Assembly (NCBI GenBank): GCA_031290475.1
Contig: JAITNM010000033.1
Coordinates: 1-13,257 of the forward strand
From: Treponema sp.
Lineage (GTDB): Bacteria > Spirochaetota > Spirochaetia > Treponematales > Breznakiellaceae
Reading direction: 5' to 3'
Length of the DNA: 13,257 nucleotides
This document shows positions 6,461 to 13,097 of the stretch, in pieces. Position 1 is the first letter of the stretch. Each line of letters begins with the position of its first letter. The notes below the pieces were generated by a model, which ran no database searches, was not told the origin of the DNA, and saw only the letters and a list, made by a program, of their open reading frames with translations. The position numbers and the translations under genes are program-made.

Positions 6461-7045
6461 TTAGGCTGTTACTGTTTCTCCTGCTTTTCTGCCTTGGGCC
6501 ATGGCTTTTGCGGCGGCATAGGCCGCCTGTTTCTTATAGTCATTGTTCCAGCGGTTGACGCTGATATAATCAAAGATCACGGCTCCCGTGTGACGGCAGA
6601 AACGGTCCATTTGTTCAAGACAGCTGAGCGCTCCGTTGCCGGAACCTCCCGGGGAGGCGACAAGCAGCGCCGGTTTGCCTGCAAAGGCCGAATCGGCCGC
6701 ATTGCCGTTGAACTGCTTTGTAGCTTCGCAACGGCGCAGGCGGTCAAAGAAATTCTTCAGGGCCTCTGCCATCTCTCCCCAATAGACCGGAGTGATAAAG
6801 CAGTAAGCCCCGGCGGACTTTATGCTTTCCTGAGCCCCGTTGAAACCGTCGCCGCCAAAGGCGCAGCGGTGCTGTTCCCGGCAGATCCCCCAGCCGTCGC
6901 CGCAAACGCGGCAGCGCTCAAGCTTCTCCAGGGTGAGTACTTCGTACTCCGCGCCGCCCTCCTTAAGCCCCCGGATGATTTCTTCCGTCACTGCATGACA
7001 GAGCCCGTCTTTTTTCGGATTCCCCGAAATGATAAGAAATTTCAT
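6461..7045 (-). CDS. Flavodoxin-like fold NAD(P)H-dependent FMN reductase / iron-sulfur-flavoprotein-like protein
   Basis: MKFLIISGNPKKDG N-terminus typical of the NADPH-dependent FMN reductase / flavodoxin-like fold. Compact Cys cluster CRVCGDGWGICREQHRC (Cx2Cx6Cx5C). AAGGAGGAG RBS 5 nt before ATG at 7045; the tracked upstream M at 7072 is less likely. Confidence 0.65.
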   Translation of the reverse strand: MKFLIISGNPKKDGLCHAVTEEIIRGLKEGGAEYEVLTLEKLERCRVCGDGWGICREQHRCAFGGDGFNGAQESIKSAGAYCFITPVYWGEMAEALKNFFDRLRRCEATKQFNGNAADSAFAGKPALLVASPGGSGNGALSCLEQMDRFCRHTGAVIFDYISVNRWNNDYKKQAAYAAAKAMAQGRKAGETVTA

Positions 7046-7056
7046 ACCGCTCCTCC

Positions 7057-7086
7057 TTTGCTTCTCCGGCATAAATCAAGTATAAT
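7057..7086 (+). promoter_or_regulatory. Candidate promoter TTGCTT-17-TATAAT in the divergent region (a second, TTGGAA-17-ATAATA, lies at about 7119-7147)
   Basis: Consensus-like hexamers upstream of the lipoprotein gene. The GTTCCA-N13-TGGAAC inverted repeat at about 7109-7133 lies between them. Confidence 0.35.
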
Positions 7087-7173
7087 AGTAAGATGAGCTT
7101 GTTCCAGAATCTGACATTTTGGAACTGCCTTAGATATTAGCATAATATCCTGCTGCCTGTAAGGAGGCCTCTT

Positions 7174-7563
7174 ATGAAGCAATGGCTGTTTTTTCTGGTT
7201 GTTCCGGTCCTTTTTGCAAGCTGCGGCGGTGATAGCTGGAATGATTCTTCTTACTTTAGTTATGACCTTGTGGGAAAATGGGAATCCGCGCCTATCGGCT
7301 ATTTCGATTACTGGGGCGTTCTGGAGATAGACTATAACAAAATTACGATAACCGGGTACAGCGGTTACGGCCCATCAACTCCTTTTGCGGAATTTACCAG
7401 AAATGTGCCCCTTGAAGGTTACTCCGAAGAGGGGAAGATATTTATTAAGGACCGGGGTTCCTGGCAGGCAGGACTGCCCTATGCGTACTGGAAGGACGCT
7501 GTGGGAGGAGGACACCTAACCTTCACTTTTGGCGGCAGAGAAGAAACCCTGCATAAAGAATGA
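7174..7563 (+). CDS. Small lipoprotein of unknown function
   Basis: Signal peptide MKQWLFFLVVPVLFASC with an LFASC lipobox; AAGGAGG RBS 6 nt upstream. Confidence 0.7.
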   Translation: MKQWLFFLVVPVLFASCGGDSWNDSSYFSYDLVGKWESAPIGYFDYWGVLEIDYNKITITGYSGYGPSTPFAEFTRNVPLEGYSEEGKIFIKDRGSWQAGLPYAYWKDAVGGGHLTFTFGGREETLHKE

Positions 7564-7746
7564 AGAAGGTATCTGCGCCGGAAAGTCTGGTACCCTGTAA
7601 ATACTAAATGGCAAGGTAGAACAAAAAAAATTTACCACTGACCTCGCAGACACCACAGACTTGTTGTCCGAAATCTTTGTCCGCGTGGTCTGTGGTTAAT
7701 CCGAACTTGGAATTAAAAAAATTCTCCATCTTTTTCAAAATTCCAC

Positions 7747-7797
7747 TTGACATATTGTACTAGTTCATTTACGATTGTACTAGATGAATAGTACAAT
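7747..7797 (+). promoter_or_regulatory. Promoter (TTGACA-17-TACGAT) plus candidate GntR operator: ATTGTACTAG x2 direct (7754, 7774) and an inverted partner TAGTACAAT (7789)
   Basis: -35 at 7747-7752 and -10 at about 7770-7775. The inverted repeat ATTGTACTA-N6-TAGTACAAT spans the ATG at 7784, and a third copy sits 20 bp upstream. The GTAC core fits the GntR-family operator pattern. Confidence 0.5.
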
Positions 7798-8194
7798 TCT
7801 TGAACCGGGGATAAGCTTCTCTTTGGACCAGGAAAACGGGGTGCCGATTTACCGTCAGGTGATTCAGCAGATCGAGTACGCCATCCTTTCGGGGCGGATG
7901 AGCTGCGGGGACAAGCTCCCCACCATCCGGTCTTTGGCGGTGGAACTCAGGATCAACCCCAACACCATCGCCAAGGCCTACAACGAGCTTGAAATTCGGG
8001 GCATTGTGAGCACCCAGGTGGGAAGCGGTACCTTCATCTCCGACAAGAAACCGGAAGGGGAAGCGGATGTCCGGAAGACGAAGATCCTGGGGATCTTTCA
8101 CCGGTTCATCCAGGATATGGCGGACCTGGGGGTTGACCGGGCCGATGTTGCCGAAATGTGCCGGTCATTAGAGGCCGGTATAAAGGAGAAATAG
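7784..8194 (+). CDS. GntR-family transcriptional regulator, YtrA-like subfamily (short C-terminal domain)
   Basis: N-terminal winged HTH PIYRQVIQQIEYAILSG...KLPTIRSLAVELRINPNTIAKAYNELEIRGIVSTQVGSGTF. The 136-aa length is typical of the YtrA subfamily that controls adjacent ABC transporters. Confidence 0.85.
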   Translation: MNSTILEPGISFSLDQENGVPIYRQVIQQIEYAILSGRMSCGDKLPTIRSLAVELRINPNTIAKAYNELEIRGIVSTQVGSGTFISDKKPEGEADVRKTKILGIFHRFIQDMADLGVDRADVAEMCRSLEAGIKEK

Positions 8195-8196
8195 GG

Positions 8197-9348
8197 ATGT
8201 TTCTTAAAAAACCAAATGAAGGGACGGAAAAGCGCTTGGGGGAGAGGCATATCGAAAAAACGCCCCTCGTAAAGAAACGCGCAAAACGGGAAAAGCGGCG
8301 GGATTTTTCAATTGGCATCGCCGGAATCAGTCTTTTGGTGATTCTCATGCTCTTTGTCATTGCCGTGGGCCTGTACCGGGGCGCCCTGCCTTCCCTGATC
8401 GAAATGGCGGTTTTGGTGTGCGTCCCGGCAGCGGTAATGGTACTCATGATCTTCTGGCCCAGGTGGCCGGGGGGCATTAAGATAGGGGTTTTGGTGATCT
8501 GCGCCGTGGCCGTTTCAGGATACCCCGATTTGGCCCTGGCCGTTATTTTTGCCGCCCTGGCGGTGTTTGTGGCGCCCTCTTTACAGAAGGCCGAGGAATG
8601 GGAACGGGCGATAGTGCTCCGGTTCGGGAAGTTCCACGGGGTGCGGGGGCCGGGGCTCTTCTTCCTTATTCCGCTGGCGGACCGGGTGGCCAGTGTGGTG
8701 GACATCCGCATCAGGGTAACGGATTTTTCCGCCCAGGAAACGTTGACCAGAGATTCCGTGACGGTTACGGTGGACGCCCTCTGTTTCTGGCTGGTCTGGG
8801 ACCCGGAAAAGGCGATCCTGGAAGTTGAGAATTACAACGACGCAGTGGTACTGTCTTCCAAGACGGCGCTCAGAAACGCGGTGAGCAGTAACGATCTTTC
8901 CACGTTCTTGCAGCACGGAGAAATTATCGCGAATCAGATCCAGGAAGAGGTTGACCGGAAAACTACCGAGTGGGGCATCACGGTGCAGCACATCGAGATC
9001 ACCGACATACAGATCCCCGGGGCGTTGCAGGATTCCCTTTCCAGGGTGGCCCAGGCGGAACGGGAAAAGAAGAGCCGGGTGCTCCTGGCCGAGGCGGAGA
9101 TCGAGATTGCGGGGAAACTACAGGAAGCGGTGGAGATCTACGCCAGGAACGAGCCAGCCATGAAGCTCAAGATCCTCTCAATTCTGAACGAGGGGCTCAA
9201 GGCGGGGAACTCCATGATGCTGGTCCCCAGTTCCATGGCCGAGGAGCTTAAAACAAAGGATATTTTCGGGCTTGAAGCATTAACCGAACTGCGGCAGCAC
9301 AAGGCCGATGCCAATAAGACTGATAAAGACAAAGGAGAAATAAAATGA
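8197..9348 (+). CDS. SPFH/band-7 (stomatin/HflKC-like) membrane protein with an N-terminal basic segment and about 3-4 TM helices
   Basis: SPFH core EWERAIVLRFGKFHGVRGPGLFFLIPLADRV...VDIRIRV...TRDSVTVTVDA, then a coiled-coil-like EAEIEIAGKLQEA. ATG at 8197 has an AAGGAG RBS, so it is preferred over the tracked GTG at 8158. The stop overlaps the next start (ATGA). Confidence 0.8.
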   Translation: MFLKKPNEGTEKRLGERHIEKTPLVKKRAKREKRRDFSIGIAGISLLVILMLFVIAVGLYRGALPSLIEMAVLVCVPAAVMVLMIFWPRWPGGIKIGVLVICAVAVSGYPDLALAVIFAALAVFVAPSLQKAEEWERAIVLRFGKFHGVRGPGLFFLIPLADRVASVVDIRIRVTDFSAQETLTRDSVTVTVDALCFWLVWDPEKAILEVENYNDAVVLSSKTALRNAVSSNDLSTFLQHGEIIANQIQEEVDRKTTEWGITVQHIEITDIQIPGALQDSLSRVAQAEREKKSRVLLAEAEIEIAGKLQEAVEIYARNEPAMKLKILSILNEGLKAGNSMMLVPSSMAEELKTKDIFGLEALTELRQHKADANKTDKDKGEIK

Positions 9349-10031
9349 CCGTAGTAAAAGCGGTAAACGTGGTTAAAGATTATTCTCTAAACGGGATTGA
9401 AATTCATGCGCTGCGGGGGGTAAACCTGGAATTTCAGAAAGGTGAATTCGCCGCCATTGCGGGTCCTTCGGGGAGCGGGAAGTCCACCTTTTTGCATCTG
9501 GCAGGATGTCTGGACACTATCACTTCCGGCAATATCAAAGTAAGAAACGAGGATGTGGAGAAACTTTCCAAAAAACAGCTTGCCCTGCTCAGACGGCACA
9601 GCATCGGTTTTATCTTCCAGGCCTATAATCTTATTCCGGTGCTTTCGGTGGAAGAAAACATCGGCTTCCCCCTGACGCTCCTGGGGGTGGATAAAAAGGA
9701 AATTCAGGAACGGGTAGAAAAGGTGCTGATCCAGGTCGGCCTGGGCGGCATGGAAAAACGGCGGCCCAAGGAAATGTCCGGCGGCCAGCAGCAGCGGGTG
9801 GCCATTGCCCGGGCCCTGGTGAAACGGCCCGCACTAATCCTGGCGGACGAGCCCACGGCAAACCTGGACTCCAAAACCGGCCGGGAAATTCTGGAAATCA
9901 TGGTGAGACTCAATCAGGATGAAGGAACCACCTTTATCTTCTCCACCCATGACAGCATGGTCATGGAATTTGCCCGCCGGGTTGTGTTTATCCGGGATGG
10001 GCAAATTGAAAAAGAGGAACGGAAATCCTGA
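9345..10031 (+). CDS. ABC transporter ATP-binding protein, MacB/LolD family
   Basis: Walker [10 protein letters not shown], signature [14 protein letters not shown], Walker [13 protein letters not shown]-loop STHD; 228 aa. Confidence 0.9.
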
Positions 10032-10052: not shown

Positions 10053-11795
10053 ATGAAGTTACAGGCAATATGGGAATTAAAGCGTATGGCGTTCAGAAAT
10101 CTGGCCCGGCACAAGGTAAAGACCACCCTGTCCATTTTGGCGATAGCGGTGAGCGTGGCGGTTTATATTTTCATGGATAGCTGGATGGTGGGCATGATTG
10201 TGGATTCCGAGCGGAATATCGTAAGCTACGAAACCGGAGCGGCAAAGCTCCAGACCAAAATGTACTTTGAAAAACTCGACGACAGGCCCATGTACGAGAA
10301 TTTTGATAACTGGGAACAATACGCCGAGGCTCTGGACAGGGCGGGTTTTGACGCCGCCCCCCATTTCGTTTTTACGGGGACCCTCTATTCGGAAACAGGC
10401 GCCGCCCCGGTTGTCTTTAACGCCGTTGACCCGGTCCTGGATCCTAAGGTCCTGCGGGTGTCCGAGGCTCTTGACGCGGGCCGTTACCTTAAAAGCGGCG
10501 CCTTTGAAATCATCCTGGGAAACATGACCGCTGATAAACTTAAGGTAGGGCTTCCCATGCGGCCCACCAGAGGGGAACTGGAAGGGGAAATTCTCCCCCA
10601 GCTTCCCCCTTCGGAGCATGATTTTGTCCGGGGGCTTTATCAGCCTGTAGGGAAAAAATCAGGCAGCATCTACGCTTCCAAAAAGACGGCGCTTCCCCAG
10701 GGGGAAGAACTCTCCCCTGAGAGAGTACGGCTCCTCATCAAACGGGACCTCTCCCAGGCCGACAAGGACCGCTATTGGGCGCTGCTGGCGGAAACCGGCC
10801 GCATGAATGTGCGGATCTCCACGGTTATCGACATAAAGGCCCCACCCGATTCAATACGTCAGGACAAGTTTGAAGCGGATCTGGCGCCGGCCTTGAGCGC
10901 CGAAGAAATGGGATTTTTCAAAAGGGTCTATGAATATGATGAGCTTACCGGCGCCTGGCATTTAATTGACGATGATCCTGTGGTCTTGGGGGAACTATTA
11001 CAGGCCATGGTGCGGATCGATTATTCCGGGGCCATACGCCATGTGAACCAGCTTATTTCAGCGGTGGTCGTGGGAACCATTAATGCCCCCAACCCCCAGC
11101 TCAACAACAACATGGCCTTCATTCCCCTGGACGCGCTTCAGGACGACGCGGGGCTTATGCTGGATGGACATGTGACGGAACTAATTGTCCGGCAAAAGAA
11201 GGCCGATGATTCCCGGATTCCCGGCCTTGCCGAATCCGCGCCGGTAATAAAAACGGCCCTGGAAAAAGAGCTCGGCGCTCCCCTGCCTTCCAGCCTGGAT
11301 GTCTTCGGCTGGGAAGGATACGCCAGGGATTTTATCGCCGCTTCCGCCGGGGATAACTGGACCACCCGGATCATAGCAGTGATACTTTTTATCCTCTCAT
11401 TCCTGGGGATTGCCAATACCATGCTCCTGGCCATTCTGGAGCGGACCAAGGAAATCGGCATGATGCGGGCCCAGGGCATGACCGACGGCCAGCTTGTCTT
11501 CACCCTGATGATCGAAGCGGGCATGGTGGGGATTATTGGTTCAGCCATCGGCATACTCGCGGGCTGTCTTGTCAATATACCCATGGTTGAATACGGCATA
11601 GACTTTTCCGCCATGACCGAGACCATGGGGGGCAATATCGGTTACCGAGTGAACGGGGTGTTCCGCTCGGCCTGGAATGTCCCGGTGATCATCGCCACAG
11701 GCATTGTGGCCACGATCCTTTCAGCGGTCATGGCCTTTTTCCCCACCCGGCGCGCCCTCAAGATGCCGGTCACCGAAAGTTTACGGTTTGAATAA
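10053..11795 (+). CDS. ABC transporter permease, FtsX/MacB/LolCE family, with a large periplasmic domain of roughly 370 aa
   Basis: TM1 LSILAIAVSVAVYIF, a long hydrophilic domain, then a C-terminal FtsX module (LAILERTKEIGMMRAQGMT plus 3 TM helices). GGAGAAAG RBS. Confidence 0.85.
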   Translation: MKLQAIWELKRMAFRNLARHKVKTTLSILAIAVSVAVYIFMDSWMVGMIVDSERNIVSYETGAAKLQTKMYFEKLDDRPMYENFDNWEQYAEALDRAGFDAAPHFVFTGTLYSETGAAPVVFNAVDPVLDPKVLRVSEALDAGRYLKSGAFEIILGNMTADKLKVGLPMRPTRGELEGEILPQLPPSEHDFVRGLYQPVGKKSGSIYASKKTALPQGEELSPERVRLLIKRDLSQADKDRYWALLAETGRMNVRISTVIDIKAPPDSIRQDKFEADLAPALSAEEMGFFKRVYEYDELTGAWHLIDDDPVVLGELLQAMVRIDYSGAIRHVNQLISAVVVGTINAPNPQLNNNMAFIPLDALQDDAGLMLDGHVTELIVRQKKADDSRIPGLAESAPVIKTALEKELGAPLPSSLDVFGWEGYARDFIAASAGDNWTTRIIAVILFILSFLGIANTMLLAILERTKEIGMMRAQGMTDGQLVFTLMIEAGMVGIIGSAIGILAGCLVNIPMVEYGIDFSAMTETMGGNIGYRVNGVFRSAWNVPVIIATGIVATILSAVMAFFPTRRALKMPVTESLRFE

Positions 11796-11804
11796 GGATG
11801 AAGA

Positions 11805-13097
11805 ATGAGTATGAGTAATACTTACAAACAGGGCGGCGCGGGTTCTTTTGGAACCTTGGTAAAGATCGCCTACCGGAATATATGGCGGAATATGCGGCGG
11901 ACGATCCTCTGCATTACCGCAGTGGGCATAGCGGTGTTTTTCATCATTGTTATGCAGTCGATGATGGGCGGGATGAACAGCGGCATCGAAAAAGTGGTGA
12001 GGGTTTTTGATACCGGACACGTCAGCGCCGCCTCCACAGACTACGAGGCGGAAAAGGAATATATGCCCGTTCAATATCCTGTGGGGAACGGCGGACCTTT
12101 CAGTGAACTGGAGGCGGAGATTAAGGCCATCCCCGGAGTCAGGGCGGTTTTCCCCCGGATCAACGCGTACGCCACCCTACAGGACAGTACGAAAAAACAC
12201 GCCCTCCTGTGGGGGCTTGATGTGGAAGCGGAAACCGCCCTGAACGCCTTTAACCTTACTACCCAGGGCAATGGCCTCTTGGAAGGCAGGTACCCCGCCG
12301 CAAACGCCAACGAATGCGCCATAGGGATCGGTATGGCGGAGAAGGCGGGCTTCAAAATCGGGGATCGTATTCCCCTGAAAACCGTTTCCGCCCAGTTCTC
12401 CGACAAAATGTGGAGTCCCGAAATAACCGGCATCTTTAAATTCGATTATCTCAAATACGATGAAGACGCGATTCTGGTGGACTTCCGCAGGCTTCAGCGG
12501 CTCCTCGTTCTGGGGGACGCAACCCAGCAGATTTTTGTCTATGCCGAAAAGGAAACCCAGAGCAAGGCCATCGCGGCCCAGGTGCAAAAAATTCTGAACG
12601 GACACGAAGGGTCCGATGTGGTCCGGGACTGGCGGGACAATTACTTTGTTGTCATGATGCAGCAGAGTATGGCTATTTTCATTGTGATTGAACTCATCTT
12701 TCTTATCGTGGCCAGCTTCCTCATCATCAATACTGTGGTAATGATCATCCACGAGCGGATCAAGGAAATCGGCATGATGGGAAGCCTGGGCATGACCAGG
12801 GGGGAAATCGTGAAGGTCTTTTTCTTTGAATCGGTTTTTTTGAGTATCTTCGGTTCTCTCGCGGGGGTTCTGCTTGGGGGCATCGTCACCGGCGTCGGCT
12901 CCCTCTTTCCATTGGACTTCAGCGCCATGAGCGGGGGGTTCAAGGAATATCCCATATCGGCAACCCTGTTCCTGGAATTTGGTCCGGGCATACTCGCCAT
13001 GGGTTTTTTCTTCGGCGTAATAATTGCGTCGGTATGCACCCTGTTCCCTTCGCTCAAAAGCGCGTTCGTAGAGCCTGTCGAGGCTTTGCGGAGATAG
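11805..13097 (+). CDS. ABC transporter permease, FtsX/MacB/LolCE family (second, shorter paralogue)
   Basis: TM1 ILCITAVGIAVFFIIV, a periplasmic domain of roughly 230 aa, and a C-terminal FtsX module (IHERIKEIGMMGSLGMT plus 3 TM helices). AAGGA RBS 7 nt upstream. Confidence 0.85.
   Translation: MSMSNTYKQGGAGSFGTLVKIAYRNIWRNMRRTILCITAVGIAVFFIIVMQSMMGGMNSGIEKVVRVFDTGHVSAASTDYEAEKEYMPVQYPVGNGGPFSELEAEIKAIPGVRAVFPRINAYATLQDSTKKHALLWGLDVEAETALNAFNLTTQGNGLLEGRYPAANANECAIGIGMAEKAGFKIGDRIPLKTVSAQFSDKMWSPEITGIFKFDYLKYDEDAILVDFRRLQRLLVLGDATQQIFVYAEKETQSKAIAAQVQKILNGHEGSDVVRDWRDNYFVVMMQQSMAIFIVIELIFLIVASFLIINTVVMIIHERIKEIGMMGSLGMTRGEIVKVFFFESVFLSIFGSLAGVLLGGIVTGVGSLFPLDFSAMSGGFKEYPISATLFLEFGPGILAMGFFFGVIIASVCTLFPSLKSAFVEPVEALRR

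Follow-up and report, generated by a model that had tools for sequence, protein, structure and literature searches.

Promoter and repeats at the start of the regulator gene

We analysed a 13,257-bp stretch of Treponema sp. DNA (contig JAITNM010000033.1), called the window throughout, in which the gene of a small transcriptional regulator begins inside a compact cassette of promoter elements and palindromes. The gene (7784..8194) encodes a YtrA-subfamily GntR regulator of 136 amino acids, an assignment based on Pfam and on structure matches; its start is supported by tests of reading frame, codons and ATG that are described below. It stands in an operon with ABC (ATP-binding cassette) transporter genes, and the cassette, which reads ...cacTTGACAtATTGTACTAGttcatTTACGATTGTACTAGATGAATAGTACAATtc... 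in the window, holds two palindromes and not a single site. All features of the cassette and the operon lie on the forward strand.

The promoter consists of a -35 hexamer TTGACA (7747..7752) and a -10 hexamer TACGAT (7770..7775) separated by 17 nt. It is the top sigma-70-like match within 7000-8400, with a score of 10/12, in agreement with a first-pass annotation of the same letters that had named it the best promoter of the region. Upstream of the -35 hexamer lies an A/T-rich stretch (7724..7746; family form tttttnAAAAt), a possible UP-like element judging from its composition, which is kept in related cassettes while its exact sequence is not (0.3-0.8 bit per position, 71 unique cassettes).

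Two copies of ATTGTACTAG (7754-7763 and 7774-7783) follow each other at a start-to-start distance of 20 bp. Together, the second copy (7774-7782) and TAGTACAAT (7789-7797) make up a perfect inverted repeat of 9 bp, its arms separated by the 6-nt spacer GATGAA. The ATG of the regulator gene (7784-7786) lies inside this spacer and is directly preceded by an in-frame TAG stop. Both the direct copies and the inverted pair around the ATG had been reported by the first-pass annotation, and their coordinates were confirmed. It had described the arrangement as a triple half-site operator: the three half-sites are indeed where it placed them, but there is a fourth, and the cassette is built of two palindromes, the putative operators O1 and O2, on the same half-site.

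O1 is a compact 14-bp palindrome, TTGTACT/AGTTCAT (7755..7768), which lies in the promoter spacer and includes the first repeat copy. Its form in the window is TTGTACTAGTTCAT, with an imperfect right arm, and TTG and CAA are 8 nt apart. Pairing of the O1 left arm with a partner 16 bp off, in the manner of O2, was considered and rejected, as 3/8 bases match. O2 is the long palindrome TTGTACTA-GATGAA-TAGTACAA (7775..7796). In the window it extends to a perfect 9-N6-9 palindrome of 24 bp (7774-7797), with GT and AC 16 bp apart and 16 nt between TTG and CAA. It reaches from the last base of the -10 hexamer, which doubles as its own first base, through codon 5 and so covers the predicted transcription start site (TSS) and the start codon. 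Codons 2-5 of the regulator, AAT AGT ACA ATT (NSTI), are the right arm of O2.

When both strands of the window were searched with at most one mismatch, ATTGTACTA was found three times, each time exactly and each time in the cassette, the expected number being 0.89. After shuffling of the intergenic region, any 9-mer occurred three or more times inside 50 bp in 34 of 20,000 trials (0.17%).

Conservation of the cassette in related loci

Next, we collected 80 genome loci through protein patterns far from the N-terminus. They come from termite-gut Treponema metagenome-assembled genomes, T. primitia ZAS-10 (L001), Breznakiella homolactica RmG30 (L028, with a GTG start), Brucepastera parasyntrophica RmG11 (L024) and others. 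The loci were aligned on the start codon, and the -35 hexamer, O1 and the -10 hexamer played no part in their selection. Regulator homologues at 62-87% identity nearly all start with MNSTI. The O2 22-mer, with up to three mismatches, sits at the ATG in 72 of the 80 loci, and because of this recurrence the cassette cannot be put down to chance. Exact O2 copies were found in at least 120 further loci in metagenomes.

The whole cassette has the form TTGACAtATTGTACTAGt(t/a)CAtTTAnnATTGTACTAG-ATG-AATAGTACAA, with a spacing that is fixed in more than 160 unique loci. Among 162 unique regulator cassettes, TTGACA is exact in 114 and has at most one mismatch in 140, and the -10 hexamer fits TAnnAT in 115, T-14 and A-13 being near invariant. 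The end of the -10 hexamer is 8 nt from the ATG in nearly all cassettes. Information content is 1.1-1.7 bit at each position of the -35 hexamer, the first repeat, C-18/A-17 and TAnnAT; past +13 and 5' of -38 the sequence is essentially unconstrained, and past the arms ACAA is conserved while ACAAT is not.

Promoter spacers are normally free of sequence constraint. Here, the O1 left arm carries 1.1-1.5 bit per position, and C-18 and A-17 of its right arm are conserved as well. An extended -10 element (TGn) was rejected as the cause of the conserved CA at -18/-17, since the positions do not fit. The family consensus of O1 is TTGTACT/AGTACAt, its commonest form is TTGTACTAGTACAT, and the form of the window is the third commonest. 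In several loci O1 is degenerate with O2 intact, which suggests that O2 is probably the primary site.

Upstream neighbours of the cassette vary by locus, and a crude call of the longest open reading frame (ORF) puts them on the opposite strand in roughly half of the cases. The promoter must therefore lie inside the cassette. Throughout 1.06 Mb of fetched loci, all 163 of 163 compact 14-mers and all long palindromes fall within cassettes, and these are attached to the regulator, to its ABC operon or, in one lineage, to an adjacent patatin gene.

Several individual loci deserve mention. An identical cassette with its regulator occurs in a sequence labelled 'Fibrobacteria bacterium GUT31' (L033, LIUH01000052.1), which suggests mis-binning or horizontal transfer. 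At L176:1575- a perfect cassette precedes an ORF that loses family similarity after about 14 codons (MNSTRSDRKIQILLDPARAVAP...) and looks like a frameshift, which would make it either a pseudogene or an assembly error. Paralogous regulator loci with the same operator were observed in single genomes or contigs (L054/L055, L014/L060, L016/L032). The first pair (BNUT01000001.1, 30083-36469 and 47843-54229) is identical around the start and oppositely oriented.

Putative operator arm as codons and ATG as start

Since the right arm of O2 is also coding sequence, we compared its codons with those used elsewhere in the same genes. Among 71 cassettes, codon 2 is AAT in 68, codon 3 is AGT in 63 and codon 4 is ACA in 70, whereas AAT makes up 40%, AGT 6.2% (of Ser codons) and ACA 16.6% of the codons for the respective amino acid in the remainder of these genes. 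Because rare synonymous codons are retained, selection on codons 2-4 evidently works at the DNA level, and the N-terminal MNST is dictated by the operator arm. Residues 1-6 are disordered in the AlphaFold2 (AF2) model of the regulator, with a predicted local distance difference test score (pLDDT) below 50, from which a structural role of MNST appears unlikely.

The ATG of the motif is in frame and the sequence stop-free up to the GntR domain in 72/72 loci, over 14 different lengths (15-39 codons) of the linker between the ATG and PIYRQ. In regulator cassettes the spacer carries ATG in 166 cases and GTG in two, which accounts for 168/168. Some genomes have a separate cassette at the orthologous ABC ATPase gene (MTVVKA...), followed 20-60 nt on by GGAGG and an ATG. 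Thirteen such cassettes, found by a search that required both O2 arms and made no selection on the spacer, have both arms and keep the -35 hexamer, O1 and the -10 hexamer. Their spacers are GATAAA (four times), GATAAT, GTTAAA, GTAGAT, GGCAAA, GAAGAA, GTTGAA, GGTAAA and GATGAA (twice), so that ATG is present in 2/13 of them versus ATG or GTG in all 168 regulator cassettes (Fisher p = 6e-16). The ATG is thus kept only where an ORF follows, as expected of a start codon, and the arms, recurring with conserved promoter elements in non-coding copies of the cassette, behave as an operator.

In a subclade of four loci (L025, L039, L041, L078) the upstream half of the cassette has been replaced. The helix-turn-helix (HTH) residues of these regulators are unchanged, and their N-termini have drifted to MNNAK, MNNVK and MSTVK. 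Two of the loci (L025:2975-3000, L078:2980-3000) contain a run of about 13-15 G ending 1-4 nt 5' of the ATG, which could be a substitute for the Shine-Dalgarno (SD) sequence or a phase-variable tract. Close to this clade are two loci (L011:2992, L017:2437) with the O2 variant TTGTATTA...TAATACAA, in which the same C-to-T change is found in both arms and the N-termini become MNNTK and MNNTI. We did not retain covariation of the O2 arms as evidence, since one lineage is too weak a basis.

A copy of the cassette with O2 intact and O1 degenerate was also observed 5' of a gene of 770 codons for a patatin-like phospholipase (Pfam PF01734; L005:542-2860, L009:390-). The cassette ATG is in frame with this gene, and the predicted protein reads MNSTI, then M and a signal peptide; an unrelated secreted protein would thus carry a prefix encoded by the operator. 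At L180:4141-4260 there is a secondary cassette whose spacer is GTTGAA; tandem GGTTCGAAAAA repeats come after it where an SD sequence and an ABC ATPase start would usually stand.

The regulator protein and its operon

Pfam GntR matches residues 23-85 of the regulator above the gathering score (E = 4.6e-18). Its AF2 model (pLDDT 82) displays a winged HTH of three helices and a two-strand wing, followed by two C-terminal helices (94-114 and 119-135). Pfam and model together place the protein in the GntR superfamily. Within it, YtrA proteins have a short C-terminal domain of about 50 amino acids with two alpha-helices, and the regulator has just such a domain and no large effector domain. A profile of 34 homologues gave full-length matches to 4R1H, 4HAM, 3NEU, 3BY6 and 2DU9/2EK5, and a match limited to the N-terminal region to 6SBS; a Foldseek search with the model returned the same YtrA-type structures at the top. 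The description of the gene as YtrA-like in the first-pass annotation is thus borne out.

The best NCBIfam matches of the regulator are the PmtR and Rv1152 families (NF047563, NF053730), with 55.8 bits against a cut-off of 200 and 70.5 against 170. Both scores being far under the curated cut-offs, we rejected the protein as an equivalog of either, and NCBIfam offered no equivalog for the regulator or for the transporter. Membership in the AraR subfamily was likewise rejected, the 136-residue protein having no sugar-binding domain of the LacI/GalR type.

Downstream of the regulator follow a gene for an SPFH/Band 7 membrane protein (8197..9348; Pfam Band_7, 4.9e-36; SD sequence AAGGAGA), a MacB/LolD-type ABC ATPase gene (9345..10031; Pfam ABC_tran) and two FtsX/MacB-type permease genes (10053-11795 and 11805-13097; Pfam FtsX and MacB_PCD). 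NCBIfam matches of the ATPase, to DarD, LolD and DevA-like families, are all under cut-off. The start of the ATPase gene overlaps the SPFH stop, and in the window it therefore has no cassette of its own.

Translation signals divide the operon. Complementarity to the anti-SD sequence reaches 3/6 at best 5' of the regulator, versus 5/6 for the four downstream genes, each of which has AGGAGA or AGGATG 1-4 nt 5' of its ATG; the first-pass annotation had rightly credited these genes with ribosome-binding sites. The regulator combines an AUG start with the lack of an SD sequence, as is typical of leaderless mRNAs.

Two features lie upstream of the cassette. An ORF of 129 codons (7174-7563) has a GGAGG SD sequence and codes for a hydrophobic N-terminus resembling a signal peptide (MKQWLFFLVVPVLFA); Pfam and NCBIfam gave no match for it. 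Between this ORF and the cassette, positions 7652-7696 contain an inverted repeat, ACCACAGAC/GTCTGTGGT, whose 9-bp arms match perfectly around a loop of 27 nt. No T-run accompanies it, and its folding energy is ordinary (z = -0.9).

Probable autorepression by occlusion and its alternatives

Taken together, these observations make it likely that the region 7747-7797 is a self-contained sigma-70-type promoter with two operators, on which the YtrA-type GntR regulator represses its own gene by occlusion and from which an mRNA with a leader of 0-2 nt starts. An operator between the hexamers and another over the TSS are the classic geometry of repression by occlusion. One or more regulator dimers on O1 and O2 would leave RNA polymerase unable to bind or to open the promoter, and the regulator would repress itself together with the co-transcribed genes of the SPFH protein and the MacB-type ABC transporter. 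The distance from the -10 hexamer to the TSS is usually 6-8 nt. Given this discriminator length and the invariant spacing between the -10 hexamer and the ATG, transcription is predicted to start within 7782..7784, at A7782, G7783 or A7784. The regulator would then be translated from a leaderless mRNA without an SD sequence, probably weakly, and the downstream genes with SD sequences strongly. At its 5' end (7782-7860), the putative leaderless mRNA has no unusual structure (fold z = 0.11). The first-pass annotation had interpreted the region as a case of promoter occlusion by the regulator with a leaderless or near-leaderless transcript, and on the level of sequence this interpretation is supported.

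As the protein that would bind the cassette, the YtrA-type regulator next to it is the obvious candidate, for four reasons. YtrA regulators typically control the single ABC operon to which they belong, via palindromes some 24 bp long; AraR, a GntR-type protein, has boxes with nearly the same half-site; the motif is confined to cassettes in the 1.06 Mb; and an archaeal YtrA likewise sits over its own TSS and makes use of additional half-sites. Judging from YtrA/PmtR-type systems, the inducing signal may be an envelope or export-substrate cue.

Some points weigh against this interpretation. Canonical spacing puts the TSS at A7782, which means a leader of 2 nt and not a strictly 5'-terminal AUG. 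The arm spacings of 8 and 16 bp differ so much that one rigid dimer cannot fit both O1 and O2, and YtrA regulons mostly have single sites (Suvorova et al.), whereas the cassette has two. Paralogues share the operator, and what we call autoregulation may be cross-regulation. The conservation counts given above lack phylogenetic independence, and common descent among the termite-gut treponemes inflates them. Finally, symmetric changes in both O2 arms occur in L011 and L017 only and probably go back to a single event.

It is quite unlikely that the cassette is bound by another transcription factor, for instance a global regulator or one of the stress response, instead of the adjacent GntR protein. 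Site and adjacent gene are not strictly one-to-one, because the clade of L025, L039, L041 and L078 keeps identical HTH residues without the site at its own gene and because paralogues within one genome use the same operator. Nevertheless, the motif is confined in 1.06 Mb to cassettes of the regulator, the ABC operon and the patatin gene, its TTGTAC/GTACAA half-sites fit the boxes of GntR-type AraR (PMC3592433), its length of 24 bp is the YtrA norm (PMC6746942), and YtrA regulators as a rule belong to single ABC operons that are autoregulated (PMC4494728). Another factor is thus disfavoured by both co-occurrence and motif type. In transcripts that begin further upstream, UUGUACUA/UAGUACAA of the inverted repeat could pair into a hairpin whose loop contains the AUG, and the repeat would then act mainly as RNA, on translation or stability. 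The 23-nt repeat does fold at -8.0 kcal/mol (z = -5.1), and the commonest left-arm change, C to T, still permits a G-U pair. Such a role is very unlikely in view of the conserved -35 and -10 hexamers, which put the predicted TSS within the repeat and would leave its left arm untranscribed from the cassette promoter, and of the position of O1 in the promoter spacer, where it cannot work as RNA. Moreover, read-through is not a conserved feature, upstream genes being variable and, in roughly half of the cases, divergent; further changes in the arms (A to C, T to C, A to T) break pairing without compensation, and an Rfam scan of the whole window matched no family. At most, the hairpin is a secondary safeguard that silences read-through transcripts.

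Another explanation takes the operator ATG as incidental and lets translation of the regulator begin downstream, at TTG 7823 (after GGGGA) or GTG 7841 (after AGGAAAA), both of which are in frame in the window and have purine-rich stretches 5' of them. We consider this very unlikely: residues 10-19 (ISFSLD..NG), 5' of GTG 7841, are conserved as protein, and position 20 varies among homologues (V, A, I, T, F). The frame of the motif ATG, held in 72/72 loci across the 14 linker lengths, and the presence of ATG or GTG in 168/168 regulator cassettes versus 2/13 ABC-gene cassettes speak for the ATG, and by the tests of frame, conservation and ATG both downstream codons were rejected as starts. Activation of the promoter by the regulator is equally hard to credit. 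Some GntR proteins both repress and activate. However, sites between the -35 and -10 hexamers and over the TSS occupy positions of steric repression and not of class I or II activation, and a promoter so near consensus (10/12, 17-nt spacer) should not need an activator.

Beyond occlusion as such, the cassette might be a portable module in which an arm of the operator is at once codons 2-5, a single DNA element thereby specifying the promoter, the sites for the repressor, a leaderless start and an MNST tag that is 'operator-encoded'. We regard this as rather unlikely. Copies placed on patatin-like phospholipase and ABC operons would then belong to the same module, the 5'-terminal AUG having been selectively destroyed on the ABC operons. 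If the leaderless mini-ORF or the tag were regulatory, for example because leaderless initiation competes with SD-led initiation, transcription and translation would be coupled in a kind of switch that has not been described for GntR regulators.

Significance

YtrA/ABC operons under self-repression are already known, and so are operators that cover the TSS and leaderless genes for repressors. New are the specific operator, the phylum and the unusually close overlap between start codon and operator, the former lying in the spacer and codons 2-5 forming the right arm. It is new as well that the cassette is reused 5' of other genes, among them that of a patatin-like phospholipase, which gains an MNSTI prefix.

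Termite-gut treponemes have almost no characterised transcription factors, and the results provide a precise candidate operator (TTGTACTA-N6-TAGTACAA and TTGTACTAGTACAt) and a promoter for a family of regulators found widely among them. The patterns TTGTACTA-N6-TAGTACAA and TTGTACTAGTWCA can serve as search patterns for defining the regulon. The cassette is also a clean natural dissection of overlapping codes, as the 22 bp of O2 are kept in their role of operator arms, coding or not, and the ATG only before an ORF. For annotators it carries a caution: a conserved N-terminal peptide such as MNST may mirror DNA constraint and not protein function. In addition, a likely leaderless gene is added for Spirochaetota, and the cassette could be a compact repressible promoter for poorly tractable treponemes.

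Comparison with known systems

Our search for reports on TSSs or leaderless mRNAs in Treponema brought up a study of Borrelia alone, a spirochaete with short-leader and leaderless mRNAs (PMC5314773). A comparative survey of GntR motifs from 2015 lists no spirochaetes (PMC4494728), and a full-text search for TTGTACTAG gave primers or unrelated sequences among the matches listed.

YtrA motifs are long palindromes of about 24 bp, located 5' of single ABC operons (PMC4494728, PMC6746942), and GT and AC lie far from the operator centre according to Rigali 2002 as cited in PMC6746942 and PMC4494728. The prototype of the subfamily, YtrA of Bacillus subtilis with the operon ytrGABCDEF, is similar in kind: this small GntR protein, whose C-terminal domain has two helices, is encoded in an operon for an ABC transporter with accessory membrane proteins and represses it (PMC12772383, PMC4494728). 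Its operator is a long palindrome, as O2 would be. The systems differ in phylum, Firmicutes versus Spirochaetota, and in transporter class, the Treponema operon being of the MacB/FtsX type with an SPFH protein. B. subtilis YtrA reportedly uses AGTGTA-N13-TACACT, with a half-site unlike that of Treponema. We know of no report of a leaderless ytrA or of a ytrA operator that enters coding sequence. Other YtrA-type proteins, PmtR of Staphylococcus aureus and Rv1152 of Mycobacterium, regulate export or envelope functions.

Among the structural neighbours of the Treponema model is YtrA of Sulfolobus acidocaldarius (PDB 6SBS). It represses its own membrane-protein operon via a palindrome over the TSS, flanking half-sites aid its binding, and its regulon consists of its own operon and one other locus (PMC6746942). 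Unlike the Treponema system it is archaeal, with a promoter that combines a B recognition element (BRE) with a TATA box, a compact dimer and a 14-bp core (PMC6746942); in the Treponema cassette the 22-24-bp O2 would be dominant and the 14-bp O1 auxiliary.

The closest documented half-sites are those of the B. subtilis AraR operators ORA1 AAAATTGTTCGTACAAATATT and ORR3 AAATTTGTCCGTATACATTTT, which have near-identical TTGTnC/GTACAA (PMC3592433). The first-pass annotation had called the GTAC core of the repeats the one expected for GntR operators. This wording is loose, the consensus of the family being GT...AC. AraR places one GntR-type winged HTH on each half-site, with a TNG core, and accepts spacings of 6 and 8 nt (PMC3592433). 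The 8-nt spacing of O1 is found in AraR as well, whereas the 16 nt of O2 are far beyond any AraR box, and AraR, with its LacI-type effector domain, belongs to another subfamily.

In the proposed design of its start, the regulator gene resembles leaderless autoregulated repressor genes such as acuR of acuR-acuI-dddL in Rhodobacter sphaeroides (PMC3017554), lambda cI and tetR of Tn1721. Those systems differ in having TetR- or lambda-type proteins, and in available accounts the operator does not encode the first codons of the repressor. What they share with the Treponema gene is a first position in the transcript, no SD sequence and, as predicted for the latter, a start at or beside the 5' end. 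Promoter-proximal, leaderless acuR is translated less than its operon partners (PMC3017554). In genes of this type, SD-bearing downstream genes are translated more and repressor levels are kept low.

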